From an uncultured Planctomycetaceae bacterium (GTDB lineage: Bacteria; Planctomycetota; Planctomycetia; Pirellulales; Thermoguttaceae), in NCBI GenBank assembly GCA_964392255.1, contig CAYMQL010000002.1, positions 1 through 28,415 of the forward strand: 28,415 nucleotides of DNA, in the 5' to 3' direction. The position numbers were made by a program, and so were the translations under genes. The notes under the pieces are model-generated. The model did no database searches, had not been told where the DNA came from, and was given only the letters and a program-made list of their open reading frames with translations. Of the stretch, positions 811 through 28,166 are shown piece after piece (within the stretch, counting starts at the first letter, position 1; every line of letters starts with the position of its first letter).

Positions 811-3800
811 TTACGGACCCTTGCTTGCGGCTTCTGCCGCCGCCCGACGTAGATTCAACTCCAGCAGCTTGGCCAGCAGTTCCTCGTCGCTCATGCCGGG
901 GTCCCAGCCGTAGGCCGCGAACACCACGGCGTCGAGCTTCTGGTGGGCCAGTTCTAGCCAAGCCGGCCGCTCGTTGTAGAGGTTCGTCAGCGTCCGCTTT
1001 TTGAGACTCTCGGCACAGTCGGGGTCTTTTGGGACCAATCGCGGCCAGCGGACCGTGCCGATGGATTGCATCGGCTGCACCGTGGCCGGGTCGATGTAGC
1101 GGGCCCACGGCCCGTCGACCGAGCCGGGAAACTCGATCACTTCGGTCTTGGTCCACTCGGGCGGATTAAGCCAGCGGTTGCGGAGTTCGTCCAATTCCCG
1201 CGCCGCGGCGGCAATCGCCTCGCGTAGGGCAGGCAATTTGCCTGCCGATTCTGCTGCCGCCCTTTTTCCCGCCTTCTTCCCGCCGCGCTTCGCTGCGACA
1301 GGCAGGATGCCCGTCCTACGATCGTCCCACACACACTCCGGCAGCGGAAACGTCTCGAAACAGCTCGTCGGCGTGTAACGCGGCCGAGTTTCCAGTTGCG
1401 TTCCGAGCCGCAACGCCCAAACTTCGTGGATGCGGGAATGCAAGACGCCAAAGAAGCAGTCGTCGGAACGGGCAAAAGCAATTAGCTGGTGATCCGGCAG
1501 GACCGGTGAGCAGAACCACACAAAGAGCCGATGTTTCGACACGGTTGTCGTAACAACGACACGGCTCAACGGACGAAGTGCTGATCGCATCGCGGGACGC
1601 GGTTCGACATGAATCCACCAGCGTTCCCTGTATGACTGCCGCTTGTTCTTCACTCTTTCTGGACGAACCTCTTGCGTTACGCGATTGAAAGGCGATTCGT
1701 AGCAAGCGGCCTCCTCGATGGGCATATCCACCCCGAAGTCGATTATCCAGAAGTTACGGGGCCGCCGAGTAATATCCATTCCATTGATCCAAGGAAGCAC
1801 CACATCCGAGTTTGGACGCCCGTGCGGGTTGGGGGAATGCAGCATTTCAACTGCAAGCTGTTCGGGAAGGTCAAATGCGCCCCCTTTCGTGTCGGCCATG
1901 AATGATAAAGCACGATTCTGTCGCATCAACTGCGCCGTGGTCGTATCCGCAGTCGCTCGCAGGTTCGCGTTGATCTGCGCAACCGGGTTCCCGTCAAGGA
2001 TGCGGGCGGTCTGTTCGCCGCGGTCGAATCCCAGCATCGAGACGTGTACATTGGCCCCGTCGAGTACCCAGTCGCGGTCGCTTTCGGCGAAAAACACGTC
2101 GCCCGTCTGCTTGATCCGCTCGACCACCTTTCGATTTGCGCCGCCGCGAATCCCCTGAGTGGCCAGAAGACCCGCGCGCGAACATCGAGCGCGTTCAATG
2201 TGTCGCCGAGCGATCTCGAACCAATAGCAGCACAGGTCGGCCTCGCGCGGCACGCGGTCGGCCCAGACGCGGAACATGGCGTCCACGTAGTCGTCGCCCA
2301 AATTGGTCCGCAGCAGTTTTCCGCCCAGAAATGGCGGATTTCCCACGATAAACTCGGCGGCGGGCCACTCGGGCTCCTTCGGATGCTTGGGGTCGGAGAG
2401 GTCGAGAATCGCGTCCTGGCAGCGGATATTTTCGATCGGCTGCAACACCGGGTCGTCGGGCGTTTTGAACCCGTTGTGGTGCATCCACTGCAAATAGCCG
2501 ATCCACAAAACCACCTGGGCCAACTGCTGGGCGTAGGGGTTGATCTCGAGCCCGGAGAGTTGCGTGGGATCGACGTGGGGCACCAGCGACAGCCCGCGCG
2601 CGGCCGCGTAGCCGATCACCTCTTTCTCCAAATCCAACAGCAATTTGACGGCCACGTAGAGGAAATTGCCCGAGCCGCAGGCCGGATCGAGTACGGTGAC
2701 GTGGTGCAGCCGCTCGGCGAAGTCGAGGATGGCGCGGTCGAAGGTTTTGCGGGCCTTCGAGTCGCGGGCGGCGCTGCCGCGGCGCCCGGCCTGGACCTTG
2801 GGCCAAAGCCGCTCTTCGCAGCGCTGTTTGACTTGTTGCCACTCGCGCCGCAGCGGGGCCATCAGCACCGGCTCCAACAGCGTAAGGATGTCGGCCTCGC
2901 TGGTGTAGTGGGCACCGATCTGCGAGCGCTTCGCGGGATCGAGGGTCCGCTCGAAGAGCGTGCCGAAGATCGAGGGCTCGACGTTCGCCCAGTCGTAGCC
3001 GTTGATCGCGGCGAGGATGTTGATTTCCTGGGCGTTTAGCGGGATGGCCTCGTTGTCGGCGAACAGCCCGCCGTTGAATCGCAAAATGGTTTCGGCCCCG
3101 TAGTCGCCGCCGACGGCCATGGCGCTGAAGAGCGATTGCAGCCGCCGGGTGAGCATGGCCGGATTGGCCTTGGCGGTTTCCAGCAGCTTGCCGAACAGCT
3201 TTGGCGGCAGCAAGCCAATGTCCTCGCCGAACATGCAAAACATCAGCTTCATCAGGAAGTGGGCCGCCCGCTGAGGCGAGACGTCCTTGTGCATCCGCAG
3301 CCGCTCGGCCAGGTCGCCGAATCGCTCGGCGGCCTCCTTGGTGATGGCCTCGGCATGGAGGTCGGGCCGCAGGGCGTCGGGCTCGGCGAACAGCTTGCGC
3401 AGGATGTCGAGATTGGCCGGCTGGGCCAGCCCGTCGAGATCGAAAGCATAAACCCGCTTCGTCGTGTTGGTGAAGTTCGTGTGAATCTCGAAGCGGTTGA
3501 GGTCGCAAACGACTAGCAGCGGCGGGTTCTCGAGGTCCTCGCGGTAGTCGAGCAATTGCTGGTAGGCAGAGGCAAGGTTTTTGTGAGGCCCCTTGTACTC
3601 CCAACCGAAATGGCCGCGCATCCAGACGTCGGCCCAGCCTTGGCCGCCGGCGGTTTTGCGGACTCCGCGTTCGAAGGCATACCAAGCGCCGTCGGGATCG
3701 GCGGCGGCGGGTTTGGGCTGACCGAGCAGTTCGCAGAGGTCGAGAAAGTGCTGCTGGCAGGCGCTGCGTTCCGAGAGATTTGCCCGCTGCCACTTAGCGA

Positions 3801-3819
3801 TGAATTGCTGAGGAGTCAT
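811..3819 (-). CDS. MmeI-like type IIL restriction-modification enzyme (fused nuclease, N6-adenine methyltransferase and target recognition domain), 1002 aa
   Basis: Start re-placed at ATG 3819 (MTPQQFIAKW). Contains a PD-(D/E)xK-like ADVW...WEYK motif, SAM-binding VLDPACGSGNFL, catalytic GNPPF and a C-terminal RTLTNLYNERPAWL. Confidence 0.9.
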   Translation of the reverse strand: MTPQQFIAKWQRANLSERSACQQHFLDLCELLGQPKPAAADPDGAWYAFERGVRKTAGGQGWADVWMRGHFGWEYKGPHKNLASAYQQLLDYREDLENPPLLVVCDLNRFEIHTNFTNTTKRVYAFDLDGLAQPANLDILRKLFAEPDALRPDLHAEAITKEAAERFGDLAERLRMHKDVSPQRAAHFLMKLMFCMFGEDIGLLPPKLFGKLLETAKANPAMLTRRLQSLFSAMAVGGDYGAETILRFNGGLFADNEAIPLNAQEINILAAINGYDWANVEPSIFGTLFERTLDPAKRSQIGAHYTSEADILTLLEPVLMAPLRREWQQVKQRCEERLWPKVQAGRRGSAARDSKARKTFDRAILDFAERLHHVTVLDPACGSGNFLYVAVKLLLDLEKEVIGYAAARGLSLVPHVDPTQLSGLEINPYAQQLAQVVLWIGYLQWMHHNGFKTPDDPVLQPIENIRCQDAILDLSDPKHPKEPEWPAAEFIVGNPPFLGGKLLRTNLGDDYVDAMFRVWADRVPREADLCCYWFEIARRHIERARCSRAGLLATQGIRGGANRKVVERIKQTGDVFFAESDRDWVLDGANVHVSMLGFDRGEQTARILDGNPVAQINANLRATADTTTAQLMRQNRALSFMADTKGGAFDLPEQLAVEMLHSPNPHGRPNSDVVLPWINGMDITRRPRNFWIIDFGVDMPIEEAACYESPFNRVTQEVRPERVKNKRQSYRERWWIHVEPRPAMRSALRPLSRVVVTTTVSKHRLFVWFCSPVLPDHQLIAFARSDDCFFGVLHSRIHEVWALRLGTQLETRPRYTPTSCFETFPLPECVWDDRRTGILPVAAKRGGKKAGKRAAAESAGKLPALREAIAAAARELDELRNRWLNPPEWTKTEVIEFPGSVDGPWARYIDPATVQPMQSIGTVRWPRLVPKDPDCAESLKKRTLTNLYNERPAWLELAHQKLDAVVFAAYGWDPGMSDEELLAKLLELNLRRAAAEAASKGP
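1223..1320. repeat. GTAG-type REP doublet (inverted pair) lying in frame inside the R-M gene
   Basis: 1223-1247 CGTAGGGCAGGCAATTTGCCTGCCG and the reverse complement of 1296-1320 (CGTAGGACGGGCATCCTGCCTGTCG) match at 19 of 25 positions. Each arm has an 8-bp hairpin after GTAG. Confidence 0.75.
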
Positions 3820-4136
3820 AGTAATCCGAGGAATCCGCAGGACTTGCGTCAAGCAGCCAAAATGAGAGTTGCCCCCAGAATACGCGTTGCTTCGACCGTC
3901 AGCGGCTTGTGGTAAGCCATGGAAACGCCCTGCGAACGTGCAGAGGCGTGGACGCAGGAAAAATATACCCCGCGTATCCGCCGCACACAAGCGCCGCGCA
4001 CGGTAAATGGGACAGTCCCCCGGATTCGGCCAATTGCTTGACTTGTCGCCGGCTCACGGGTAGGCTGTAAGGAGCGTTTGCGACGCTTTTTATCAACCTC
4101 TTATACTGGGCTGCTAGACTGCAAAGGGCCAACAAA

Positions 4137-5942
4137 ATGCGTCTCCGGCCATTCTCGTGCGGCGCTAACGGACTCATAACTCTCGCAATCCTTGCGGCTC
4201 TCATCTTCGCGGATTGCCGCGATGTTCGGGGCGCGGCGATTATCATTGATCACACGCGGACGAACATCACCGCGATTTCCGAAGAGGCCATCCTCGACGC
4301 GAAACAGAAATTGCACATCGCCTACGCACATACCTCGCACGGCAGCCAAGTGACGTACGGAATGACCGGGCTGGTGGCTTTCGCCAACGGCCACGGCAAA
4401 GGATTGGACTTGCCCACGAACATCTTCGCCTGGAACAACGGCGGCACGGGCGGCGCACTCGACCTGCACGATTATTTCGTCGAGGGCGACCTGGGCAACC
4501 CGGACCGCGTCACCTGGGCAAGCCGCACGCGCACGTATCTCGATAACCCGGCCAACAGCGACGTCAACGTCGTCATGTGGTCGTGGTGCGGGCAAGTGGG
4601 CGGAACAGAGGCCGAGATCAATACCTACCTGAACTTGATGAACCAACTGGAAATCGATTATCCCCAAGTCAAGTTTGTCTATATGACCGGGCACTTGAAC
4701 GGCAAGGGCTTGACCAGCAGCGTGCATCTTCGGAACGAACAGATTCGCAACTACTGCCGCGCGAACGACAAAATCCTTTACGACTTCGCCGATATCGAAA
4801 CCTACAATCCCGACGGCGTTTATTTTGGCAACAAGTATCCCGACGACGATTGCTCGTACGATCCCGACGGGGCGCTGCCTCGCAATGGCTCGGGCAATTG
4901 GGCCATCGAATGGCAAAACAGCCATACGCTGAACGTCGATTGGTACGACTATGAGGCCGCCCACTCGCAACCGCTCAACGGCAATCAGAAGGCCTACGCG
5001 GCGTGGGCCCTTTGGACCAGCATCGCCGCCTCGCTCGACCCGAACGTCACTTGGACGGGCGGCGGCGGTTCTGATTGGAGTACGGTCGCCGGATCGGGCA
5101 ACTGGAAGAGAACCAGCGACGGCATCTCAGCCAACTACAGCAACGGCGCCGAGGTGGTCTTCGACGATAGCGCCACGGGTTCATTGACCGCCAACATCAG
5201 CGCGGCAAACGTGTCGCCGGCCAGCGTCGTTTTCAACAACTCCAGCAAAGATTTTCACGTCGCGGGTTCCAAAGGCATCGTCGGCGACGCAACCGTCCTC
5301 AAACAGGGCACGGCCAAGACGACCCTCAGCAGCGTGAATAGCTATTCCGGCCGCACGACGGTCGAAGGCGGCACGCTGCAACTCAACGGCGCAGGGGCCC
5401 ACAACCCGGTTCTCAATCTCGGCGGCGCGGATATCAAGGCGGGCAAAATGGTTTTCGACTACGCCGGCGGCAGCGATCCGAGAACAACAATACGCAGCTT
5501 GCTGACCGCCAGCTATCACAGCGGCAGCGCAACGCACTTCGACACCGGCAAGTTCCAAAGCTCGACGGCCGACGCCGATTATGGTTTAGGCTGGACGACG
5601 ACAATCAATTATCAAGTGATCGTTGCCCGCACGCTCTACGGCGACGCCACGCTGGACGGGGACGTCGGGGTTTCCGATCTGGCGGCCTTGGGGCAAAACT
5701 GGAACGGCGCGGAGAAGAACTGGGCTCAGGGCGATTTCAATTACGACGGCAAGGTCGACATTTCGGACCTGTCCCTGCTTGGTCAGCATTGGAATCAGAG
5801 CGCGGCCGGTTTTGCCGGCACAGCGACCGTGCCGGAGCCTGGAAGCATGATGCTGCTGGCAGCGGGCGGGGCAACGCTTCTGGGCCTCGCCCGGCGACGG
5901 AGCCGCAGGGGACGGCCTGCGGCCGCCAAGTGGATAGGGTGA
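4137..5942 (+). CDS. Secreted PEP-CTERM protein: SGNH-like N-terminal domain, autotransporter-associated beta-strand repeat, dockerin-like pair, PEP-CTERM anchor
   Basis: N-terminal signal-like hydrophobic stretch; VLKQGTAKTTLSSVNSYSGRTTVEGGTLQL; GDATLDGDVGVSDL...GDFNYDGKVDISDL; VPEPGSMMLLAAGGATLLGLARRRSRR. Confidence 0.85.
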   Translation: MRLRPFSCGANGLITLAILAALIFADCRDVRGAAIIIDHTRTNITAISEEAILDAKQKLHIAYAHTSHGSQVTYGMTGLVAFANGHGKGLDLPTNIFAWNNGGTGGALDLHDYFVEGDLGNPDRVTWASRTRTYLDNPANSDVNVVMWSWCGQVGGTEAEINTYLNLMNQLEIDYPQVKFVYMTGHLNGKGLTSSVHLRNEQIRNYCRANDKILYDFADIETYNPDGVYFGNKYPDDDCSYDPDGALPRNGSGNWAIEWQNSHTLNVDWYDYEAAHSQPLNGNQKAYAAWALWTSIAASLDPNVTWTGGGGSDWSTVAGSGNWKRTSDGISANYSNGAEVVFDDSATGSLTANISAANVSPASVVFNNSSKDFHVAGSKGIVGDATVLKQGTAKTTLSSVNSYSGRTTVEGGTLQLNGAGAHNPVLNLGGADIKAGKMVFDYAGGSDPRTTIRSLLTASYHSGSATHFDTGKFQSSTADADYGLGWTTTINYQVIVARTLYGDATLDGDVGVSDLAALGQNWNGAEKNWAQGDFNYDGKVDISDLSLLGQHWNQSAAGFAGTATVPEPGSMMLLAAGGATLLGLARRRSRRGRPAAAKWIG

Positions 5943-6480
5943 GAGTCGTCAGACGCAATCTGCAAGTATTTTTATTTCAAGGACATGCGTCATTTGTTCT
6001 TTTGTAAATCCCCCACAAAAATCCTCCCAAACGATTGCGTACTCTGTCAGCCAAGACGCTCCCACTCCTGAACGTTATTCGGTGAATTATCCGACTTCAC
6101 CCCAATCTGCAATAGTGGGTCTCGCCGCCACAGCACGAGTTTCGCCCCATCTTCCGTTCGGACCCAAGCCCCGCCCTGGGCCTCTATGTCCGATTAGGAG
6201 ATTCTTGTGTTCCCTCCCGACACCAATTTTGAAAACGGAGTAACGGACTGGGATTGATTCGCCTGTCATAATGTTGCCCCGCCGGCGATTTGCGGTTCAG
6301 AAAACCATGGCTCGATCAAACGTCTCGGAAAACGGACGAAAACAGCCGTTTTTTCACTTTTGCTCGTCTTTTTTCGTCTCGATCGAACTATTGATTCCCG
6401 GCCCCCTCAGGCGTTTTTGACGCCGACCACTCTACCACGCTTTGTCGTAACTCGTTATCATCAAGCACGTAAGGAATAGA

Positions 6481-6556
<76 letters not shown>

Positions 6557-6631: not shown

Positions 6632-6865
6632 CTAAAGCCTCGGGCGACGATACCGGCGAGGCAGTTCATTCATTTTTGAGCACCGGGCAAGAAACATCCC
6701 CGAATCCACCGGCTTCACACGCCACTGCGACCGTCCACCCCGTTTGGTTGCCAAGTTCGCTGCGGGGAGTTCACCGTCGTTGATCCAAAGGCGAATCTTG
6801 TCGGGATGGATGCCCTATCGCTCGGCAAGCTCGAGTGGTGACAACGATACACGTTCATCGTACAT
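6632..6865 (-). pseudogene. Excisionase/HTH_17 (MerR-like winged helix) gene interrupted by an in-frame TAG
   Basis: AGGAG RBS precedes ATG 6865. Translation is MYDERVSLSPLELAER*GIHPDKIRLWINDGELPAANLATKRGGRSQWRVKPVD..., with the stop at codon 17 (6815-6817). Confidence 0.75.
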
Positions 6866-7278
6866 AGCCAAGACTCCTAAAGAAAAAGGGGACGCCGTCA
6901 AGGCTGCTCCCTCCACCCCCGCCAAGGGGCACAAGCAAACCGCGCAAGGCCGGCGTTCCCTTTTGAGGGAACGGGCTTCGCTGCTTTGCTTTGCTCAAGG
7001 GCTATTTGCCCAAGTTGGCGGTTTGGAGGGAAGCAGGTTGACGCCAAAAGGCGTCACGTCAAACTACGGGATTGATTCTATCTCAGTGCGGTACCATTGG
7101 AAATGCTCCGTCCAAACTGGCCAAAGACCTGCATTGTCACATATTCCCTAGCTCGGTATTATCTCGTTCGTGTCGTATCGGTTGAGCGGTTTGTGCAGAC
7201 GTGACCTGATCAATCACACCACCCACGAGGGTTGTTTCGTGCCTTTGCCGAGACACGTGTTAGGATTATCTAGGGTGA

Positions 7279-7308
7279 TTGTAGGCAAGTCGCCGAGTGT
7301 GGTAGTAT
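7279..7308 (+). promoter_or_regulatory. Putative sigma70 promoter of the islet operon
   Basis: TTGTAG-N18-TAGTAT with an extended -10 TG, about 28 nt upstream of ATG 7337. Confidence 0.3.
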
Positions 7309-7336
7309 GAGGTGCTCTGGTTGTGGAGGAATTTCT

Positions 7337-8095
7337 ATGAGCGACAGTACCAAGAAGAATGAAATACCATCCGTTGGGATTCCTTTGCCACAATTCCAGG
7401 CCGCCGTTGACGCATTGGTCGCTTTGCGTGATTCCGGTAAGTTTCTTATCTTTCTCGGGCGTCGTTCGCGGGCAAGATTGATCGGTGATCTCAATGATTT
7501 TCAGGCGACGATGGCCGAGGTTGCGAAAGAGGCAGTCTCGCTGGAAGATGCCACCCGCATCCTTGACGAAATCAGAAGGTATTGCAGCGCATGTATGGAC
7601 ATGCAAGACGTCAAGGCGCTGAAACAGTTCCTCATGCGTGCAGTTTACGAAGACGACTTCACGAAGCACAAACGTCATAACGCAGAGCTTGAGAGACAAT
7701 TGGAAGCCAAGATCAAGCTTGTGTCGGGGAAGCTTGTTACGGACGCAATGAAGCAACGCTCAAAACGGATGCAGAGCGCTACCGTTGCTTGTTTAGAGGA
7801 CGTTGACGTCGAGATCGTGCAACATCGCCGTGAGAATTTCTCTTCTGCTAGCCGGAGTAGTGAGGAGGCATTTTTACGATTGAGGGTTCGGCATTCGGAT
7901 GGGGTGGACTTATCTGGCTCGATCTTCTTCCCATTTCACATGTGGGGTCCGTGGGAAGGCACAAACTCAAACGCATCTAGCTTCGAGATTGAATGCGATG
8001 AGTCGGACATTGACCTACTTGTGGTTCGTCTATTGGAAGCAAAAAACGCCCTTCTCAAAGCACGTGAGTCTTCGAGCGGCGAGAGTGTCACATGA
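7337..8095 (+). CDS. Hypothetical protein, 252 aa; helical N-terminus, C-terminus with a COMM-domain-like beta-beta-beta-alpha pattern
   Basis: GGAGGA RBS 6 nt before ATG 7337. The stop overlaps the next start (ATGA). The fold call is pattern inference only. Confidence 0.8.
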   Translation: MSDSTKKNEIPSVGIPLPQFQAAVDALVALRDSGKFLIFLGRRSRARLIGDLNDFQATMAEVAKEAVSLEDATRILDEIRRYCSACMDMQDVKALKQFLMRAVYEDDFTKHKRHNAELERQLEAKIKLVSGKLVTDAMKQRSKRMQSATVACLEDVDVEIVQHRRENFSSASRSSEEAFLRLRVRHSDGVDLSGSIFFPFHMWGPWEGTNSNASSFEIECDESDIDLLVVRLLEAKNALLKARESSSGESVT

Positions 8096-8949
8096 GCGAT
8101 AAAGCAAAGCACTTAATGACTACTCGTCACACAAATCTGTCTATTGAAGAGCCGACACAACAGGACGTTGCTTCGGCATCTTCTAGCGTGACAGAAATAC
8201 TGGAGCTTTTCAAGGAATTTCGGAACATGCCTTCGATGTCCCACGACAGCATTTCTAAGATTTGGCTTGAACAAGCTCTGGGTTCAGTACTCCGTGATCG
8301 AGAAAGAGAAGGATTTGTCCCTTCACACTGGGAAATCGAATCGGTTATTAAGAAGTGGTTGGCTATACGTTTAGAGAGCCACCCTTCTTTGGATGCCTTC
8401 ATTGTAACAAAGCAGACTCCTACAGAAGATGCCGAGAGTACACGATCCGAAAATGAACGCCTGCGGATTCAAGTAGATCGGTTGCGGTCTCAGGTAGAGA
8501 TGTTGAAGTCCCTTGTAGCCCAAGAACGTCGGGGCGCCGCTAAAGCAGTACGAATGCACGATCAGTTGTTGGCCCATCACGACGCGGCTGAGAAGAGCCT
8601 ACTCGATACCTTAGCGCAGCGAGATGGAGCGATTAGTACGATCCAGGCAGCCCTAATCGGCAAAGCTGAGGGGCGACTGTGTATGACGGAACACTATCAC
8701 GGTGAGGTAGTGGATGTTTCGGACAATCGAATCACAGCCGTCTTCCATATCGGCGATGAGTTGATAGAGCAGACATACGAGTCCAAGCAGTTCCTTGACG
8801 GCCAACTGCCCAATAAAGGCGATGAGTTGGAGGCGTGTGTCTACATCGCCAAATCTCTTCCAAGACAGCACGAAGCGGGTTCTTCTCATGGCACCGGCGA
8901 ATCACGAACACCACGGAGGAACGTCATCCCACTCCCGCGCACATTCTGA
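8092..8949 (+). CDS. Hypothetical protein, 285 aa; central coiled coil, C-terminal beta-rich (OB-like) domain
   Basis: ATGA coupling to the upstream gene; heptad-like ENERLRIQVDRLRSQVEMLKSLVAQE; beta-rich HYHGEVVDVSDNRITAVFHIGDELIEQTY...KGDELEACVYIA. Confidence 0.8.
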   Translation: MSDKAKHLMTTRHTNLSIEEPTQQDVASASSSVTEILELFKEFRNMPSMSHDSISKIWLEQALGSVLRDREREGFVPSHWEIESVIKKWLAIRLESHPSLDAFIVTKQTPTEDAESTRSENERLRIQVDRLRSQVEMLKSLVAQERRGAAKAVRMHDQLLAHHDAAEKSLLDTLAQRDGAISTIQAALIGKAEGRLCMTEHYHGEVVDVSDNRITAVFHIGDELIEQTYESKQFLDGQLPNKGDELEACVYIAKSLPRQHEAGSSHGTGESRTPRRNVIPLPRTF

Positions 8950-10021
8950 TTCAGTTTGTGTAGAGGTTCTTCTTTTTCCGTGTGGGCATGGCGACACGAT
9001 TCTGCTCAGGTTCCCAGGGAATCGTTGGGCCTTGATTGACTGTTATCTACCAGATAACGGAACACGTAAGGCTTTCTTCGACTTCGTGGAGGCGCAGGGC
9101 ATCCGGCGTCTGGAATGGATATTCCAAACGCATCCCGATCTGGATCATTTTTTCGGAATGACCGATGTCCTCGACTATTTCTCGCGTGAGGAAAGATCGC
9201 TCGGTTGTTGGTGTGACTCCGGCCTGAATGCAGCAGAAATCAGGGCGTTGATTAGGTGGGGAGGCATGAGTCAAACCGAATATGGAAAGCTCCAGAATCG
9301 GCTCGATGAATTGGACAGGGAGAACCGCATTCAATTTGTTGAACTCAACGATCGTGTAGAACCGATTTCGCCCGATGGCTTCACTGACAAGATCAACATC
9401 CAGCCAATTGGGCCAAGAGCGTGGTTGAAGCGGAGGAGTGTCCGCAAGGACATTGGTAAGTTCAGCACGAATCCGAATGCACGATTTGAAGCTAACGATA
9501 TTTCGGTAGTGCTTCTGTTGTTGATTCGACAGAATGGCAAAGACTGCAATATGCTTATCCCCGGCGATGCTGGGGCTGACGTGTTGTCCGATGCTCTTGG
9601 TGCATGGTCTGAACGGACTGGAGTCGTATCAGCTCCACATGTGTTCGATGTGATAAAGGTACCGCACCACGGCTCCAAAGCTTCGCATTCGCCTTCCCTC
9701 TGCAAATCCACGGCGAACAGTCCGTCTCGACGAATTGCAGCAATCTCGGCTGGTACAAGGAAGGCGTTGCCAGACCGTGAGGTTCTTCGGGACTATATCT
9801 CGGAGGGGTGGACTGTCGTAGCTACCACAACTCGCAAACTCGCTGATCGTGTGGATTCGCCGCTATTCCTCGCGGGCCGGCGTCAAAGCGATTCGGGGGG
9901 AGCCACGAAGCAACATCTGATCCGAATACGCTGGAGTCCAGCTAGCGGTTTGGAATATGAACCGCCGGAATCGACACTCGTCGAACTTGACCTTCCGATG
10001 TACGACACTGCAAGTACGTAG
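8888..10021 (+). CDS. ComEC/Rec2-type metallo-beta-lactamase-fold hydrolase (soluble, putative nuclease); start uncertain
   Basis: Motifs GHGDTILL, LIDC, THPDLDH, NDISVVL, PGDA, KVPHHGS and AISAG. The nearest in-frame ATG is 8888, overlapping the upstream gene. Confidence 0.88.
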   Translation: MAPANHEHHGGTSSHSRAHSDSVCVEVLLFPCGHGDTILLRFPGNRWALIDCYLPDNGTRKAFFDFVEAQGIRRLEWIFQTHPDLDHFFGMTDVLDYFSREERSLGCWCDSGLNAAEIRALIRWGGMSQTEYGKLQNRLDELDRENRIQFVELNDRVEPISPDGFTDKINIQPIGPRAWLKRRSVRKDIGKFSTNPNARFEANDISVVLLLLIRQNGKDCNMLIPGDAGADVLSDALGAWSERTGVVSAPHVFDVIKVPHHGSKASHSPSLCKSTANSPSRRIAAISAGTRKALPDREVLRDYISEGWTVVATTTRKLADRVDSPLFLAGRRQSDSGGATKQHLIRIRWSPASGLEYEPPESTLVELDLPMYDTAST

Positions 10022-10147
10022 CTGGCCTTCATTCCTGTTGCGTGTTACAATCACCCGCTGAAAGTGCGTTCTGGCGGCAGCCGGGTGACATGATTGCTGC
10101 GGAATTGTTAAGATAGGCAATTTAGACCCACGGTTTTAGAAACCGTG

Positions 10148-10192
10148 TTCCTAAACCGTAGGTCGCAGGTTCGATTCCTGCCAGGCGCGCTT
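10148..10192 (+). repeat. attR, 45-bp copy of the tRNA-Arg 3' half
   Basis: Identical to 6512-6556. The 5' half of the tRNA is absent here. Confidence 0.95.
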
Positions 10193-19655: not shown

Positions 19656-19684
19656 TTGTACCGGCCGGCTCGTATTGGTATACT
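19656..19684 (+). promoter_or_regulatory. Putative sigma70 promoter giving a leaderless or near-leaderless mRNA for the R-M gene
   Basis: TTGTAC-N17-TATACT with extended -10 TG. The ATG is only 7 nt after the -10 box and there is no Shine-Dalgarno. Confidence 0.55.
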
Positions 19685-19691
19685 CGGCGCC

Positions 19692-22541
19692 ATGCCGCTT
19701 TCATGGAACGAGATTCGCCACCGCGCCATCGTCTTTAGCAGAGACTGGAAAGGCGTTGCCCGCGAAGCCGCCGAGCGTCAAACTTTTTGGAACGAGTTTT
19801 TCAACGTTTTCGGCGTCCGCCGCCGCACGGTAGCCACCTTCGAGGAGCCTGTCAAAAAGCTCTCGGGCGATTGGGGCTACATTGATCTGTTCTGGCCGGG
19901 CCGCCTGTTGGTCGAACACAAGTCCGCCGGCGCGGATTTGGGGAAGGCGCATGCTCAGGCCATGGCCTATATCCGCGGTCTCAAAGACAGCGGGCGCGAC
20001 CGCGAGATTCCCCGCTGGCTGATCGTCTCGGATTTCGCGCGCATCGCGCTGCACGATCTTGAGCCGGAGCAAGAACCCGACTTGCCGCTGTTGAACCGCT
20101 TGCCGCCGAGCGTCGAATTTACGCTGGCCGACTTGCATCAATGGATTCGCCATTTTGCCTTTATCGCCGGCTACACCCAACATCGGCTCGACCCCGAAGA
20201 CCCGGCGAACCTCGAAGCCACGCAACTGATGTGCGATCTGCACGACGCCCTGGAAGCGGGCGGCTATGCCGGGCACGAACTCAAGCGTTTTCTGGTCCGC
20301 ATTCTCTTCTGTCTCTTTGCCGAAGACAGCGGCATCTTCCCCCAGAAGGCCTTTGAATTGTTTCTCCGCGACCGCACCGCCGCAGACGGTTCCGATCTCG
20401 GCGTCCGGCTCGAACAGCTCTTTCACGTCCTGAACACCGACATCCCGCGACGCCAACGCAATCTGGACGAGGAGCTCAGCCAGTTTCCCTACGTCAACGG
20501 CGACCTGTTCGCCGAACGCCTCGCCTTCGCCGAGTTCAACAGCGACATGCGGAACTGTCTGCTCGCCTGCTGCGGGTTTCGCTGGGAAACGATTTCTCCC
20601 GCCGTGTTCGGCTCGCTTTTTCAGGCCGTCATGGACGGCAAGGAGCGCCGGCAGATCGGCGCGCACTATACGGCGGAAAAGAACATCCTCAAGCTTATCC
20701 GCTCGCTGTTTCTCGACGAACTCCGCGCCGAGTTCGAGGCGATCAAGGTCGACCGCTCCACTCGCCGCGCCGCACGATTACAGGAATACCATAAAAAACT
20801 GGCCCAACTCCGTTTTCTCGACCCGGCGTGCGGCTGCGGCAACTTTCTCGTGATCACCTACCGCGAACTCCGCGCGTTGGAACTCGAAGTGCTTGTGGCA
20901 ATTCACGGCCGCCAGCAAGTACTCTCGCTCGACGACGTGAACCGGCTCTCCAAACTCGACGTCCATCAGTTCTACGGCATCGAGATCGAGGAGTTTCCCG
21001 CCCGCATCGCCGAGGTCGCGCTGTGGCTGACCGACCATCAAGCGAACGTTGCACTTTCTCAGGCGTTCTCGCAGCTCGTCCTTCGTCTTCCGCTTCGCGC
21101 CTCGCCGCACATCCACGTCGGCAATGCGCTGCGCATGGACTGGCGGGAAGTCATTCCGCCGGACCAGTGTTCCCACATCCTCGGCAATCCGCCGTTCGTC
21201 GGCGGGAAATACCAGACCGACGAGCAACGCGCGGACATGGACGTTGCGGCGGCGGGAATCAAAAACGCGGGGTTGCTCGATTATGTAACGGGTTGGTACT
21301 TCAAGGCGGCCGACTACATCCAAGGCACTCGCATAACCGTGGGCTTCGTTTCTACCAACTCGATCACGCAGGGCGAGCAAACGGGCGTGTTGTGGAACCC
21401 GCTCTTTCATGATTTCGGCCTGAAAATTCATTTTGCCCATCGCACATTCCCGTGGGAAAGCGAGGCTCGCGGCAAAGCGCACGTCCACGTCGTGATTATC
21501 GGTTTCGGCGCCTTCGACATCGGCAACAAGAAGCTTTATGATTACGATGGAGGCGATGCCACCCTCAACGTCGTCAACAATATCAGCCCTTATCTCGTGC
21601 AAGGTCCCGACCGCGCCGTCACAAACCGCACGAAGCCGATTTGTGCGGTCCCGCAGATGGGCATTGGCAACAAGCCCATTGACGACGGTAATTATCTGTT
21701 CACGCCTGAAGAAAAAGCGGAATATCTGCGGCTTGAACCGCTGGCGAAACCGTTCTTCCGCCGTTGGATCGGCTCCGAGGAGTTCATCAACGGCATCGAA
21801 CGGTGGTGCCTATGGCTGGGCGACTGTCCGGCTGCGCAGTTACGGAATATGCCGCAAGCGTTGGCCCGCGTCGAAGCGGTGCGCAAGTTCCGTTTAAAAA
21901 GCAAAAGCGCGCCGACGCAAAAATTGGCTTCGACTCCAACGCGGTTTCATGTTGAAAACTTTCCCCAGCGTTCCTATCTCGTTGTTCCCAAAGTCAGTTC
22001 GGAGCGTCGCACCTATATTCCCATCGGTTTCATCAGGCCGGAAGTGTTGAGCAGCGATCTGCTGCAAATTGTCCCCGAGGCCGCGCTCTATCACTTCGGC
22101 GTTCTTTCCTCCGCGATGAATATGGCGTGGGTCCGGCATGTTTGCGGCCGGTTGAAGTCTGATTACCGGTATTCCAACCGACTTGTGTACAACAACTTCC
22201 CTTGGCCGGAATCACCGACTCAAGCCCAACAGGACGCTGTGGAGAACTGCGCCCGAAAAGTTTTGGAATTGAGATTGGAATATGGCGACGGTCGACACGG
22301 ATATCTGCCGACCAAGAAACCCCGAGTTGTGCCGGCTACGCTGGCCGATCTCTACGACCCGTTGACGATGCCGGCCCCGCTGTTGAAGGCCCATCAAGCG
22401 CTCGACCGGGCGGTGGATCGCTGTTACCGCAAAGAGCCCTTCCCGAGCGACCGCCATCGCGTCGAATATCTCTTCGCCCTTTACGAAAAGATCACGGCCC
22501 CGCTGCTGCCGGCGGGAAAGCCGAAACAAAAGAAACAATAA
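19692..22541 (+). CDS. MmeI-family type IIL restriction-modification enzyme (YeeA-like), 949 aa
   Basis: MPLSWNEIRHRA start; YIDLFWPGRLLVEHKS nuclease motif; GAHYT; FLDPACGCGNFL; GNPPFVG; C-terminal TLADLYDP. Confidence 0.92.
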   Translation: MPLSWNEIRHRAIVFSRDWKGVAREAAERQTFWNEFFNVFGVRRRTVATFEEPVKKLSGDWGYIDLFWPGRLLVEHKSAGADLGKAHAQAMAYIRGLKDSGRDREIPRWLIVSDFARIALHDLEPEQEPDLPLLNRLPPSVEFTLADLHQWIRHFAFIAGYTQHRLDPEDPANLEATQLMCDLHDALEAGGYAGHELKRFLVRILFCLFAEDSGIFPQKAFELFLRDRTAADGSDLGVRLEQLFHVLNTDIPRRQRNLDEELSQFPYVNGDLFAERLAFAEFNSDMRNCLLACCGFRWETISPAVFGSLFQAVMDGKERRQIGAHYTAEKNILKLIRSLFLDELRAEFEAIKVDRSTRRAARLQEYHKKLAQLRFLDPACGCGNFLVITYRELRALELEVLVAIHGRQQVLSLDDVNRLSKLDVHQFYGIEIEEFPARIAEVALWLTDHQANVALSQAFSQLVLRLPLRASPHIHVGNALRMDWREVIPPDQCSHILGNPPFVGGKYQTDEQRADMDVAAAGIKNAGLLDYVTGWYFKAADYIQGTRITVGFVSTNSITQGEQTGVLWNPLFHDFGLKIHFAHRTFPWESEARGKAHVHVVIIGFGAFDIGNKKLYDYDGGDATLNVVNNISPYLVQGPDRAVTNRTKPICAVPQMGIGNKPIDDGNYLFTPEEKAEYLRLEPLAKPFFRRWIGSEEFINGIERWCLWLGDCPAAQLRNMPQALARVEAVRKFRLKSKSAPTQKLASTPTRFHVENFPQRSYLVVPKVSSERRTYIPIGFIRPEVLSSDLLQIVPEAALYHFGVLSSAMNMAWVRHVCGRLKSDYRYSNRLVYNNFPWPESPTQAQQDAVENCARKVLELRLEYGDGRHGYLPTKKPRVVPATLADLYDPLTMPAPLLKAHQALDRAVDRCYRKEPFPSDRHRVEYLFALYEKITAPLLPAGKPKQKKQ

Positions 22542-22619: not shown

Positions 22620-23546
22620 GTGGCAAGTCATGTTTTCGGACCCGTGCCGTCTCGACGTCTTGGACGGTCGCTAGGCGTTGACCTTGTTCCGCTGAAAACG
22701 TGTTCCTACGACTGCATCTACTGCCAACTCGGTCGAACCACATGCAAGACCGTCGAGCGCAAAGAGTGGGCGCCGCTCGAACAAGTATTGGAGGATGTGA
22801 AACAAAAACTCGACGCGCGGCCGGATTATATCACGCTGAGCGGTTCGGGAGAGCCTACGCTCTTTAAGCCTTTGGACAAACTCATCGACGGCATTCGGGC
22901 GATGACCGACATTCCGATCGCCGTGCTGACCAACGGTTCGCTGTTGCATCTCCAAGAAGTCCAGTCGGAATTGTCTCAGGCGGATTTAGTGATACCCTCG
23001 TTGGATGCCGGCACGGAGGGCGCTTTCCGGCTGGTCAACCGCCCGCATGAGTCGATTTCTTTTGAAAGCATGTTGTCGGGGTTGATTGAATTTCGCCGTC
23101 GTTTTCGCAAGTCCTATTGGCTGGAAGTCTTCTTAATTGGCGCGTATACGACTTATGAAGAAGAGCTTTCTGAGATCCGCCGCTGCGTCAAGTTGATTTG
23201 TCCCGATCGCGTCCAGTTGAACACCGTGACCCGTCCTCCGGCGGAAAACTACGCTGCCGCGGTCCCGCGCGAGCAAATGGAGAAAATCGCCGCGACGTTT
23301 TCACCGCCGGCGGAAGTCATCGCCGAGTTTCGCTCCGCCGCCGAGAAGGAAGTTGGTCAAGCCGGCCGCGACGAAGTTTTTCAACTGCTCAAGCGGCGAC
23401 CTTGCTCAATCGACGACATCGTCGGCGGCCTGACCATGCACCGCAACGAAGTCCTAAAACATGTCGAGCATCTTTGCGCTGATGGTCTATTGGAAGAAAG
23501 CCGGGTTGGAGAGAAGCTTTACTATAAAGTTGCGCAACAATCGTAG
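22620..23546 (+). CDS. Radical SAM Fe-S oxidoreductase with C-terminal winged-helix-like segment
   Basis: GAGGAG RBS, GTG start, CSYDCIYC, GSGEPTL and LTNGSLL. Confidence 0.88.
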   Translation: MASHVFGPVPSRRLGRSLGVDLVPLKTCSYDCIYCQLGRTTCKTVERKEWAPLEQVLEDVKQKLDARPDYITLSGSGEPTLFKPLDKLIDGIRAMTDIPIAVLTNGSLLHLQEVQSELSQADLVIPSLDAGTEGAFRLVNRPHESISFESMLSGLIEFRRRFRKSYWLEVFLIGAYTTYEEELSEIRRCVKLICPDRVQLNTVTRPPAENYAAAVPREQMEKIAATFSPPAEVIAEFRSAAEKEVGQAGRDEVFQLLKRRPCSIDDIVGGLTMHRNEVLKHVEHLCADGLLEESRVGEKLYYKVAQQS

Positions 23547-26098: not shown

Positions 26099-26408
26099 CA
26101 AGACTGCACATCCCCAACGCGGGAAATCTTGTGCCGGCTATCCTCTAAAGCGGAGGGCAAGGGATTCCGAACCACCGCAAATTCATCGGAAAAACCGGGG
26201 ATTCCTGAGCAAGACAGCTTTAAATCCAGCTCTGTTACGGACGGAAGCCAAGCAGGCGACGTAGACAGTGCATCCTTGCGGGTTGTAGCGATTGCGCGGC
26301 CGCACCTTGGCCAAAAACACAAACGCGATATTCTAGCGATCGTCCGCCTGGCCTCCGAGGATAACCGAGGCTGGTGCTGTGCTTTTGAAGAAATCGACGA
26401 TGATTGAG

Positions 26409-27017
26409 TCAACCTACTCCTTCTCCGGTATAACTTACTGGATTTAGTGCCCACTGAACATTTGCAAGACCAGTGAAGAGCATAAGTACAACCCCCAAAA
26501 AGACATTCCTTTGGTCATCATCATTCCTCCACTCATTCATATCCATCAAGTCCTTTTGCCAACATGGTATCTGCCGTCCATCACTGAGCGCCACTGTGCA
26601 ACAATGCTCCACGCTTTCAAGCCAGTCTTTCAGTATCCGAAAATTACCGCTTACTTCATCGTCCGAAAGCACAATCGTGAAATCCGAATGGGCAATAGCG
26701 TTGCGAATATCCTGAACGGCCTTTAATGCCGCGCAATCCTGATTTTCAAGAAAGCCTGCTTCATTACAACGTTTCAGGTTCCTTCCAATACTCCACGAAA
26801 ACTTGCAGTCTGGATTGTGTGCTTTCAAACATCGACATATTCCTTTATTTAGAAACTCCGTACCCATGAGCACTTGTGCAAGTTCTGTTTGGCCACGTAA
26901 AACGCCGAGAATGGGCTGTCCCTTCTTATTTAAGAATTGTGGAGCTATCACCATGCGCCCATCAAGCGTTCCTCTTGCACTTGTTCCGCGTGGGAACGGC
27001 AAAAAGTCCATCCGCAT
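26409..27017 (-). CDS. HEPN/MtlR-like helical protein with RxxxxH motif
   Basis: GGAGG RBS favours ATG 27017 over 27032; CAALKAVQDIRNAIAHS; C-terminal hydrophobic helix. Confidence 0.6.
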   Translation of the reverse strand: MRMDFLPFPRGTSARGTLDGRMVIAPQFLNKKGQPILGVLRGQTELAQVLMGTEFLNKGICRCLKAHNPDCKFSWSIGRNLKRCNEAGFLENQDCAALKAVQDIRNAIAHSDFTIVLSDDEVSGNFRILKDWLESVEHCCTVALSDGRQIPCWQKDLMDMNEWRNDDDQRNVFLGVVLMLFTGLANVQWALNPVSYTGEGVG

Positions 27018-27162
27018 TTTTTGGCCCTCCATTGAATGTGCTACTGTCCCAATTTGTGGTTACGTCTGAACCTACAGGGTAAGATGATGCTGTCAAGATG
27101 GCGATGGCCTGTGGCATGTGATGGGGGGCTGCAAGTGCCTACTCTGCTGGATAAGTCGGTCA

Positions 27163-27191
27163 TTGACAACCGGAGAGGGATTAGGTAGGGT
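27163..27191 (+). promoter_or_regulatory. Putative sigma70 promoter of the vapBC pair
   Basis: TTGACA-N17-TAGGGT upstream of an AAGGAGG RBS. Confidence 0.6.
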
Positions 27192-27213
27192 TTATGAAGG
27201 AGGGATGATCGCC

Positions 27214-27447
27214 ATGCTTTCATTAACCGTGGAACTTGACGAGCAGGTGGCCGAGGCCGTTCGCAATATGGCTGCGGCCCAGCGCCGTAGCGAACGTGAA
27301 ATCGTTCAAGAAGCCGTCGCGGCCTATGCCCACGGTGCCCGGCCTATGCCGCAAGGCATTGGTAAATACCGAAGCGGCCAGACCGACGTTTCGGAAAAGG
27401 TCAAAGACATTCTCCGCGACGAGGCGAAGGAACGACGATGGCCTTAG
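27214..27447 (+). CDS. vapB: Ribbon-helix-helix (CopG-like) antitoxin
   Basis: LTVELDEQVAEAVRNMAAAQRRSEREIVQEAV; overlaps the downstream PIN gene by 10 nt. Confidence 0.8.
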   Translation: MLSLTVELDEQVAEAVRNMAAAQRRSEREIVQEAVAAYAHGARPMPQGIGKYRSGQTDVSEKVKDILRDEAKERRWP

Positions 27448-27863
27448 TGTGCGATACCGGCGGCGTGTACGCCCTATACGACGCCGACGACAAGCATTAC
27501 CCCGCTGCCAAGCGAGTTGTGGAGGACGAAGTAGGGCCATTGTATTTGCCTGTGGTTCTGCTGGCGGAAATCGACTACCTGCTTACGACGCGGCTGGGCG
27601 TCGATGCAGCCTTGGATTTCCTCCAGAGCGTCGAAGCATTGGCCTTCACATTGGTAGAACTAGCGACGGAAGACCTTGCCCGCTGCCGCGAGTTGGTGGC
27701 TCAATACCGAGACATGCCGCTTGGAATCGCCGATGCCGCCGTTGTGGCGACGGCAGAACGCTTGAAAATCCAGCGTCTTCTCTCTGTGGACGAGCGGCAT
27801 TTTCGAGCAGTCAAGCCGCGAGGGCTGAATAATTTCGTCCTCTTGCCGACAGACCAAGAATGA
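27438..27863 (+). CDS. vapC: PIN-domain toxin
   Basis: CDTGGVYA, LAEIDY, LGIADAAVVA and SVDERHF acidic PIN motifs. Confidence 0.9.
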   Translation: MALVCDTGGVYALYDADDKHYPAAKRVVEDEVGPLYLPVVLLAEIDYLLTTRLGVDAALDFLQSVEALAFTLVELATEDLARCRELVAQYRDMPLGIADAAVVATAERLKIQRLLSVDERHFRAVKPRGLNNFVLLPTDQE

Positions 27864-28084
27864 TGATCTACAGCCGCTCGCTGACGTATAACCATTCGCC
27901 CAAAACACAGCAGGATCAGCCGAAAAGGACAGCGTTAAATCCAGCTTTACGGCAGCGTTAAATGCAGATTTGGACACGGCGACCCATTCTGCGCCATGTT
28001 TCCCGTTTCTTTCGCAACCTCTTGGGCTGCATCAGTTTGGGGCAGCACGTCCCAACATAGGACATCATGCACCACCCCCTAAAG

Positions 28085-28166
28085 CGGAGGGCAAGGGAGT
28101 CGAACCCTCAACGGCTTGCGCCGCATCTGATTTCGAGTCAGACTGCTAACCATTCGCGTACCCTCC
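28085..28166 (-). tRNA. tRNA-Ser(CGA), long variable arm, atypical acceptor/D junction
   Basis: Minus strand GGAGGGT...TCTGA-CTCGAAA-TCAGA, variable arm GCGGC-GCAA-GCCGT, T loop TTCGACT, 3' GCCCTCC-G; 82 nt. Confidence 0.88.

Follow-up and report, generated by a model that had tools for sequence, protein, structure and literature searches.

A recurrent three-gene module of Planctomycetota with a predicted COMMD-like protein, a coiled-coil adaptor and a ComEC-type hydrolase: a candidate conflict system

Introduction

What is the function of three overlapping genes that are the sole intact genes of a small, tRNA-associated islet in a planctomycete genome, and do these genes belong together beyond this one locus? 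The genes in question, denoted g1, g2 and g3, lie on the forward strand of a 28,415-nt contig stretch from an uncultured Planctomycetaceae bacterium (contig CAYMQL010000002.1; hereafter, the window), where they occupy positions 7337-10021 (the window copy). Coordinates are window positions unless another locus is named, and the features are collected in Table 1. An earlier note on this DNA, made from the bare sequence, proposed that the three genes comprise an undescribed defence system consisting of a COMM-like protein, a coiled-coil/OB-like protein and a metallo-beta-lactamase (MBL) hydrolase. Here, this proposal is weighed against the distribution, conservation and predicted structures of the three proteins.

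A recurrent module with a two-gene core

The co-orientation and overlaps of the three genes described in the earlier note were confirmed in the window: the ATGA at 8092-8095 joins g1 and g2, and g3, the open reading frame (ORF) of which is open from 8795 and has its first ATG at 8888, overlaps g2 by 62 nt. Protein searches yielded 13 relatives for g1, 35 for g3 and a single one for g2; the respective contigs were fetched together with loci from GTDB genomes and JGI metagenomes, and the ORFs of all loci were scored with hidden Markov models (HMMs) of g1, of the g2 coiled coil (g2cc), of the g2 barrel and tail (g2bb) and of g3. The resulting sample consists of about 25 non-redundant contigs, of which many are short. 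The three-gene order was found at about 14 independent loci of Planctomycetota, in each of which the full triad retains the same order, usually with overlapping genes (the window, L005, L001/L095, L110, L006, L008, L010, L011, L014, L092, L096, L099, L100 and L115). The records that name an organism come from Pirellulaceae, Isosphaeraceae, Tepidisphaeraceae, Phycisphaerales, Thermoguttaceae and Candidatus Anammoximicrobium.

The part of the triad that never varies in composition is smaller than the triad itself. The gene for the g2 barrel and tail lies immediately upstream of g3, usually overlapping it, in all 22 non-redundant loci for which upstream sequence is available, and g1 is absent from six distinct loci that encode the g2 barrel and g3. 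In two of these g1-less arrangements, the N-terminus of g2 is replaced by a recognizable domain, namely, TIR_2 (Pfam, 4.8e-12; L109, 707-2119) and CsrA (2e-12), the latter in the Isosphaeraceae loci L012 (7080-7874) and L113 (1081-1836), which represent the same arrangement; in L106, a separate CsrA-domain gene follows g3 (9223-9693). The remaining doublets are L013, with a short g2 of 168 aa, L015 and L112. The possibility of a hidden g1 was addressed for L012, L013, L015 and L112 by unfiltered hmmsearch and by hhalign, and the upstream ORFs proved unrelated to g1. In a rough neighbour-joining tree of g3, triads and g1-less doublets are intermixed and, therefore, g1 appears to have been gained or lost several times.

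The presence of g1 is tied to one particular part of g2. The g2cc HMM gives strong matches (E <1e-20) solely in the g2 genes of g1-bearing loci and weaker ones (E 4e-07 and 1e-04) in two loci where g1 occurs with a coiled-coil protein that has a different C-terminal domain and with a DUF7689 protein (L098, 1479-3505; L101, 1-1343), and in the g1-less loci nothing is significant save a marginal match in L013 (E 3.5e-04). The DUF7689 protein (Cys...His motif, Pfam 3.3e-31) stands in for the MBL protein in these two loci, having been swapped jointly with the C-terminal domain of g2. The coiled-coil g2 comes after g1 in all loci with downstream sequence, the sole exception being L007 (5921-14748), a disrupted triad in which about 6.6 kb with an IS1-type transposase and two endonuclease VII genes separate g1 from g2-g3. 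In a degraded triad, L016, g1 is in fragments. An apparent fusion of g2 to a FabF-like sequence in L097 was judged to be an assembly or deletion junction rather than a new architecture.

The invariant core, then, is the g2 barrel with g3, the COMMD-like gene being an optional addition linked to the g2 coiled coil. In other words, the module consists of an invariant adaptor-effector pair, a coiled coil that accompanies the COMMD-like gene, and a freely exchangeable N-terminal element. The original notion of a three-gene unit stands as far as co-occurrence across loci is concerned and requires revision in that the obligate unit comprises two genes. That g1, g2 and g3 form one conserved functional module is highly probable.

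All three genes bear the marks of purifying selection. In the comparison of the window with L005, the ratio of nonsynonymous to synonymous substitution rates (dN/dS) is 0.24 for g1, 0.25 for the coiled coil and barrel of g2 and 0.25 for g3. Such values, close to 0.25 in all three genes, together with the gene order that is kept on independent contigs, indicate that these are real genes rather than chance ORFs.

The ComEC-type hydrolase g3

The identification of g3 as an MBL hydrolase held up and can be narrowed to the branch that includes ComEC and the defence nucleases. The protein matches Pfam Lactamase_B with E 8e-06 and contains a THPDLDH motif at residues 81-87 (nt 9128-9148). Nine residues, D36, H82, D86, H87, D227, H260, H261, G262 and S263, are invariant in 32 g3 sequences, and the MBL metal-binding motifs, D, H-x-[DH]-x-D-H, D and HHGS, are all present. 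The family profile matches the MBL domain of ComEC (9ic4_A) with E 9.7e-17, in two blocks; relative to ComEC, g3 has an insertion of about 40 aa between motif 2 and the later motifs and a C-terminal extension of about 65 aa. These motifs and profiles identify g3 as a ComEC-type MBL hydrolase with an intact two-metal site. Its DNase activity is presumed by analogy with the published activity of ComEC, HamM, Avs1a and CanC.

The named families nearest to g3 are the defence MBL proteins, although the matches to their models are weak. The NCBIfam model of Avs1a scores 45.5 bits against a cutoff of 420, and 6A-MBL scores 39.5 bits against a cutoff of 220. The best PADLOC match is the MBL model listed under LmuA (2.1e-11), and the PADLOC model of Avs1a is matched in part (7.5e-08); PDC-M48B gives 1.2e-10 and a reverse transcriptase (RT)-associated MBL 2.2e-07. 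The full sets of components of 6A-MBL, PDC-M48 and Lamassu are not present above threshold: the MBL matches are weak, and g1 and g2 match none of the models of these systems. Thus, g3 is related to the Avs1a, HamM, 6A-MBL and LmuA-MBL families without belonging to any of them.

The coiled-coil and barrel protein g2

The g2 protein combines three regions. The N-terminal stretch, which spans 60-120 residues across loci, is unalignable between them. The coiled coil was predicted by AlphaFold2 (AF2) as one helix at approximately residues 114-188 (about 75 residues; predicted local distance difference test score, pLDDT, about 80), and it carries the conserved motif ENERL(K/R)S.V.EERR. The C-terminal part consists of a small putative barrel of four strands, in which G14, Y39 and Q43 (numbering of alignment A4) are invariant, an acidic linker and an R/K-rich, hydrophobic tail that ends in PLPRTF or GPIEF.

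The description of g2 in the earlier note as a coiled-coil/OB-like protein was thus borne out in the coiled coil and the small barrel; the label 'OB-like' remains unproven because no significant match to the barrel was obtained, either by fold or by sequence. Searches of Pfam, PADLOC, NCBIfam and PHROGs with g2 gave nothing significant, the matches to generic coiled-coil models in these collections being treated as noise. The Foldseek matches of g2 (ribosomal proteins, PWWP, dsRBD) have a probability of at most 0.54 and were disregarded. The best match of the barrel profile among the PDB sequences, to the Tudor/Agenet domains of FXR, has E 0.13.

The COMMD-like protein g1

The g1 ATG is preceded, 8 nt away, by GGAGG, and the same start is used by the orthologue in L005; the start of a longer ORF, from 7307, is not supported by orthologues. 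The g1 family is small, with 137 clusters at 50% identity among 1.84 billion representatives, and its members come from Planctomycetota in every record that names an organism. No match to g1 was found in Pfam (E<=1), NCBIfam or PHROGs and nothing significant in PADLOC, where a match to Drt8 over a helical stretch (E 0.0058) was dismissed as noise.

The AF2 model of g1, built from 13 homologues, is confident (pLDDT 81.6, predicted template modelling score 0.76). It consists of an N-terminal helix and hairpin (residues 17-50), a six-helix domain resembling HN (52-147) and a COMM-like domain (152-251) with strands at 152-161, 179-187 and 213-220 and a long C-terminal helix at 222-251. The top 19 matches of this model in the Foldseek search of the PDB are exclusively COMMD or bacterial COMMD-like chains, among them the bacterial octamer 9q6a/9q6c and the COMMD ring of human Commander (8p0w/8f2r/8esd), in agreement with the COMM-like assignment in the earlier note. 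The whole-chain matches have E values from 3e-4 to 1e-2 and probabilities of 0.96-1.0, isolated COMM domains give target-normalised template modelling scores of 0.70-0.77, and the first match outside the COMMD fold has a probability of only 0.08; g1 has no match to a viral fold. As predicted, then, g1 has the COMMD-like fold, that is, an HN domain made up of helices and a COMM domain of three strands and a helix. Conservation is strongest in the COMM-like part of alignment A1, and the motif SFEIECDESDIDLL is invariant.

No PDB sequence was matched by the A1 profile or by the remote relatives P0164, P0167 and P0171, with which a link in sequence between g1 and the solved COMMD proteins was sought. 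This does not exclude COMMD membership because the prokaryotic members are not readily found by sequence methods (PMC13392464).

Cassette exchange and mobility

The copies in the window and in L005, which are otherwise approximately 95% identical, diverge over one block. The DNA identity is 88-100% at ~7200-7999 and from 8500 to the g3 stop, 77% over 8000-8099 and 40-62% over 8100-8499, which corresponds to the g2 N-terminus. In this region, dN is 0.71 and dS is saturated, so that dN/dS is undefined. Over ten complete triads, g1 shows a mean pairwise identity of 43%, the g2 coiled coil 39%, the g2 barrel 43% and g3 46%, compared with 24% for the g2 N-terminus, for which a shuffled control gives 20%. 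The identity pattern, the high dN and the near-shuffled similarity together argue that the g2 N-terminus is a cassette that has been swapped and not just a linker under relaxed constraint.

Several features show the accessory, mobile character of the module. Homology between the window and L005 stops exactly at the module borders (identity is 91% from ~7200), the module has a lower GC content than its flanks in 20 of 20 loci, with a mean deficit of 8.4 points, and the flanking genes are different at every locus, with no conserved neighbourhood.

Relationship to known systems

The combination of g1, g2 and g3 is covered by no PADLOC, NCBIfam or Pfam system model, nor by any paper found, consistent with the earlier impression that it has no name; PADLOC v2 and NCBIfam release 20 contain no models for g1 or g2, and no paper linking COMM domains to anti-phage defence was found in the literature searched. 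The individual proteins do have counterparts in several characterized systems, so that the likenesses and differences can be stated component by component.

The effector has the clearest parallels. In Hachiman, AVAST, Lamassu and Canu, ComEC-like MBL proteins have been proven to serve as latent DNase effectors (PMC12799240; 10.1101/2025.09.03.673762). With these gated nucleases (HamM of Hachiman, Avs1a of AVAST type 1, the Lamassu- and DRT-associated MBL proteins and CanC of Canu), g3 shares the branch of the MBL fold, the HxDxDH-type and HHGS motifs, the free-standing soluble form, the location beside a gene for a regulator or partner and the presence of insertions relative to ComEC. It differs from them in scoring far under the family cutoffs and, more importantly, in the company that it keeps. 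A gated defence nuclease invariably comes with a protease, trypsin-like or caspase, that cuts its gating loops, whereas the g3 module contains no protease, its invariant partner being the beta-barrel domain carried by a coiled-coil protein. In the Pfam-annotated loci, which make up part of the sample, the module is nowhere adjoined by a trypsin-like or caspase gene; the protease-family genes in the vicinity are, in L001, a trypsin-PDZ (HtrA-type) gene at a distance of 6 kb and, in L106, L109 and L110, genes for the metallopeptidases M14, M20 and M28. Given that every characterized defence MBL nuclease is unlocked by a protease, the lack of a protease in this module and the invariance of the barrel partner suggest that a keeper bound to the nuclease, and not proteolysis, exerts control, a possible new mode of control for such nucleases.

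Lamassu (LmuA, the SMC-like coiled-coil ATPase LmuB, and LmuC) resembles the module in having three genes, a swappable effector that can be an MBL protein and a coiled-coil partner, but g2 has no ATPase head and no match to LmuB or LmuC, and g1 is unrelated to LmuC. The C-terminal MBL domain of ComEC/Rec2 is the closest solved structure to g3 by sequence profile and shares its metal-binding motifs; nevertheless, apart from its insertion and extension, g3 differs from ComEC/Rec2 in that only the MBL domain is matched, with no DUF4131 or Competence membrane domain (TIGR00361 reaches 25 bits, the cutoff being 190).

In the CCC core of the eukaryotic Commander complex, a COMMD ring is bound by the coiled-coil proteins CCDC22 and CCDC93 (for example, PDB 8f2r and 8p0w). 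The module likewise appears to combine a COMMD-fold protein with a coiled-coil partner, the partnership being suggested here by the overlap of the genes and their strict co-occurrence; the parallel is no more than an analogy, in that g2 has no evident kinship to CCDC22 or CCDC93 and the presumed output is a nuclease, not membrane trafficking.

The COMMD-like proteins of prokaryotes have been described by Liu et al. (Nat Commun 2026), who state their function as unknown, report no predicted complexes with the products of neighbouring genes, mention neither nucleases nor phages nor defence and found no prokaryotic homologues of CCDC22 or CCDC93 (PMC13392464). The bacterial representatives with solved structures form octamers or decamers via COMM-domain dimers, 9q6a and 9q6c being an octamer (PMC13392464). 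The g1 model shares the helical HN and COMM topology with these proteins, which are its best PDB fold matches, and differs from them in the additional conserved N-terminal helix-hairpin (17-50), in belonging to a separate small family without detectable sequence similarity and in the translational coupling of its gene to those for a coiled-coil protein and a nuclease. The module, therefore, offers a first functional lead and a candidate binding partner for a class of bacterial proteins that was structurally described only in 2026.

A candidate conflict system and its alternatives

The architecture of the module is compatible with the following scheme. The g2 barrel and tail would bind g3 and keep the nuclease latent, in line with a gene order in which the inhibitor comes first and translation is coupled; the g2 coiled coil would dock on a homo-oligomeric ring of g1, by analogy with the bacterial COMMD-like octamers and decamers; the ring would present multiple copies of the variable g2 N-terminus, which would confer specificity or act as the sensor; an invader-derived cue bound by this N-terminus would release or activate g3; and the active g3 would degrade DNA and halt the infection, probably at a cost to the cell. 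The g1-less variants would employ TIR, CsrA or other N-terminal modules to the same end. The odds that the module is a horizontally mobile anti-phage or anti-plasmid (conflict) system, with a nuclease and its keeper working roughly in this manner, appear about even, and any particular activation step is put forward with far less assurance.

A role in defence is likely, on circumstantial evidence. The MBL branch to which g3 belongs supplies several defence systems with latent DNase effectors, and the nearest named relatives of g3 (Avs1a, LmuA-MBL, 6A-MBL, PDC-M48B and RT-associated MBL) are defence nucleases. Effector and sensor modules are swapped as in defence systems, and the variable element has been replaced by recombination. 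The TIR domain, fused to g2 in one locus, is a hallmark of immune proteins. Some of the neighbouring genes point in the same direction. In L110, a full HEC-01A-type ABC/AAA_21 ATPase (4978-6429; PADLOC 6.9e-152) is encoded 61 nt upstream of g1, and a truncated copy of such an ATPase gene is located at the same position in L001 from Candidatus Anammoximicrobium (6901-7566); this ATPase could belong to a neighbouring system or, in that lineage, be an additional, fourth component. A dCTP deaminase (2e-85) is encoded 3.3 kb upstream of the module in L008. The window itself contains two MmeI-family type IIG restriction-modification (R-M) genes (Table 1), both of which match all Pfam MmeI domains, so that the islet is located in a region already rich in defence genes.

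Several observations weigh against this reading. The proximity of defence genes is anecdotal, at about 5 of 22 loci. The PADLOC scan of 91 further neighbour ORFs yielded, among the best 25 of 43 families, only PD-T4-6, mad6, C3a189 (kinase) and MkoA, which matched 3 ORFs each; most of these are Ser/Thr-kinase models, which are uninformative for enrichment. Ser/Thr kinases are a common gene class in Planctomycetota. A link to phages or plasmids is not apparent from the distribution of the genes: the viral contigs of IMG/VR contain no g1 relatives and only distant MBL proteins, and among plasmid records, g1 is absent and the g3 matches are solely ComEC-type MBL genes of haloarchaea. The protease-type control of the known defence MBL nucleases cannot be simply transferred to the module because those nucleases need a partner protease, which is absent here. 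Finally, the AF2 model of g2, built from two sequences, is poor (pLDDT 55), so that the barrel fold and the contact with g3 stay putative, and the COMMD-like assignment of g1 comes from a predicted structure, with no sequence-level link to the solved COMMD proteins.

Among the alternatives, the one that survives best, albeit an unlikely one, is that the module is a toxin-antitoxin or addiction system that stabilizes the islet, with g3 as the toxin, the g2 barrel as the antitoxin and g1 tuning stoichiometry or stability, without any sensing of phages. The gene order of the two-gene core, in which a putative inhibitor comes first and is translationally coupled to the nuclease, is what would be expected of such a system, the short two-gene forms, such as L013 with its 168-aa g2, resemble toxin-antitoxin pairs, and the window copy is carried by a degraded mobile islet from which the integrase has been lost. 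A simple pair, however, leaves unexplained the hypervariable, cassette-swapped N-terminus of g2, the TIR and CsrA fusions and the recurrent recruitment of a 250-aa ring-type protein, and most copies lie outside recognizable mobile elements. Besides, this alternative and the defence reading are not mutually exclusive, given that many modules of the toxin-antitoxin type function in defence.

The same data on genomic context bear on the distinctly improbable alternative that the module is a housekeeping or stress complex for nucleic acid processing (DNA repair, DNA uptake or CsrA-linked RNA turnover) that happens to reside in variable regions. The closest solved relatives of g3 are indeed competence nucleases (ComEC), RNA-binding CsrA domains are fused to the core or adjoin it in some loci, and the neighbours of several loci are purely ordinary metabolic genes. 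Nonetheless, the g1 family is rare and patchy, the GC deficit is seen in 20 of 20 loci, the neighbourhood is not conserved, the window copy is within an att-flanked islet, and g3 is devoid of the membrane and DUF4131 domains of the competence proteins, a separate true ComEC being encoded elsewhere in the L112 locus; moreover, the exchange of the g2 N-terminal cassette speaks against a conserved cellular substrate. The last alternative, an interbacterial toxin-effector module in which the MBL or DUF7689 protein would be delivered by secretion with g2 as adaptor or chaperone, is in keeping with the association of Myxococcota COMMD-like genes with components resembling the type VI secretion system, with the effector swapping that is also typical of polymorphic toxins and with the WHH toxin and SUKH immunity pair encoded nearby, upstream, in L007, but is very improbable given that no VgrG, PAAR, Rhs, DUF2169 or secretion genes are present among the neighbours in the Pfam-annotated part of the loci, that there is no conserved immunity gene after g3 and that g3 is free-standing, with no signal peptide or PAAR/Rhs-type delivery domain seen by eye.

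Should the module act as a conflict system, what is rated as new, relative to the systems discussed above, is the COMMD-like scaffold and the protease-free partner of an MBL nuclease, within a modular arrangement of sensor, adaptor and nuclease. A bolder extension, which appears decidedly unlikely, is that bacterial COMMD-like rings are immune scaffolds, such that a ring bound to a coiled-coil adaptor, which would both display a hypervariable sensor and hold a nuclease, would foreshadow the COMMD-CCDC22/93 core of Commander; if true, the COMMD fold would have served in conflict systems first and been recruited to membrane trafficking later. At 2.7 kb, and with its natural swaps of the sensor cassette, of TIR and CsrA and of MBL and DUF7689 proteins, the module is a tractable system for the exchange of immune specificity modules, in a host phylum, Planctomycetota, the defence repertoire of which is barely charted.

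The islet and other features of the window

Table 1. Features of the three-gene module, the islet that carries it and the flanking R-M genes in the 28,415-nt window
Feature	Position	Strand	Evidence or remark
MmeI-family type IIG R-M gene	811-3990	-	PADLOC REase_MTase_IIG 5e-277; 3.3 kb upstream of g1
tRNA-Arg(CCT), integration target, intact	6481..6554	+	ARAGORN; Rfam tRNA 72.3 bits
attL, left copy of 45-nt exact direct repeat	6512..6556	.	anticodon loop to tRNA 3' end plus 2 nt
Excisionase-type helix-turn-helix (HTH) pseudogene	6632..6865	-	in-frame TAG at 6817-6815
Promoter-like site TTGTCA-17-TATTAT	7134..7162	+	10/12 consensus matches; candidate only
g1, predicted COMMD-like protein, 252 aa	7337..8095	+	AF2 model, Foldseek, alignment A1
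g2, 285 aa	8092..8949	+	ATGA 8092-8095, g2 start over g1 stop
g2 N-terminal region, residues 1-105, hypervariable	8092..8406	+	unalignable between loci
g2 coiled coil, residues 106-190	8407..8661	+	AF2 helix, g2cc HMM
g2 putative beta-barrel (residues ~191-256), acidic linker, conserved tail	8662..8949	+	alignments, g2bb HMM
g3, soluble ComEC-type MBL-fold hydrolase, 377 aa, presumed DNase	8888..10021	+	Pfam, invariant motifs, ComEC profile
attR, right copy of 45-nt repeat	10148..10192	.	repeat search
Second MmeI-family type IIG R-M gene	19656-22541	+	PADLOC REase_MTase_IIG E 0

The picture of an att-flanked, AT-richer islet in which the three genes are the only intact cargo and the mobility genes are dead or missing was upheld in all its parts. 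The direct repeat of the 3'-end of the tRNA gene, which in the repeat search forms a family of 50 nt with 96% identity, the first 45 nt being exact, encloses DNA of foreign composition, with a GC content of 0.47-0.55 compared with 0.60-0.67 in the flanks, that is, about 9 points lower. The islet measures 3,636 bp from repeat start to repeat start, and g1, g2 and g3 occupy most of the interval. Its sole mobility remnant is the excisionase-type HTH gene, which is interrupted by a stop codon (translation MYDERVSLSPLELAER*GIHPDKIRLWINDGEL...) and, with the stop masked, matches Pfam HTH_17 with E 6.4e-07 and 30 bits (cutoff 27); the islet contains no integrase ORF, nor space for one. The Rfam scan detected no RNA gene in the islet other than the tRNA.

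The tRNA/att setting is peculiar to the window copy. The att core of tRNA-Arg was matched in none of 112 loci, and the one further case of a tRNA-adjacent module is the degraded copy L016 (6111-8969), in which g1 persists as three frame-shifted pieces and which begins 86 nt after a tRNA-Asn(GTT) gene; no repeat was found to flank this copy.

The candidate promoter is located about 175 nt upstream of g1 and about 40 nt before the point where the identity with L005 attains 90%. A perfect 7-bp hairpin, CACGGTT-TTAGA-AACCGTG, abuts attR at ~10128-10146, just before it; the hairpin looks like an anticodon arm and might be either a recombinase site or what is left of the end of the element.

Outside the islet, a radical-SAM gene (22620-23546, forward strand) lies directly downstream of the second MmeI-type gene; its match to pVip (viperin) in PADLOC, with E 3e-09, is too weak for it to be called as such. 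A second low-GC patch (0.46-0.49) spans positions 26250-27250, about 1 kb from a tRNA-Ser(CGA) gene at 28084-28166, and may be another small acquired element; it contains an ORF on the reverse strand (26409-27032, 207 aa) that has no match in Pfam or PADLOC and encodes an RNAIAH (Rx4H, HEPN-like) motif. Beside the same tRNA-Ser gene, there are two overlapping small genes on the forward strand, 27118-27447 and 27438-27863. The product of the latter (MALVCDTGGVYALYDADD...), for which PADLOC gave no match, looks, as judged by eye, like a toxin of the PIN/VapC type, with a putative antitoxin gene upstream.

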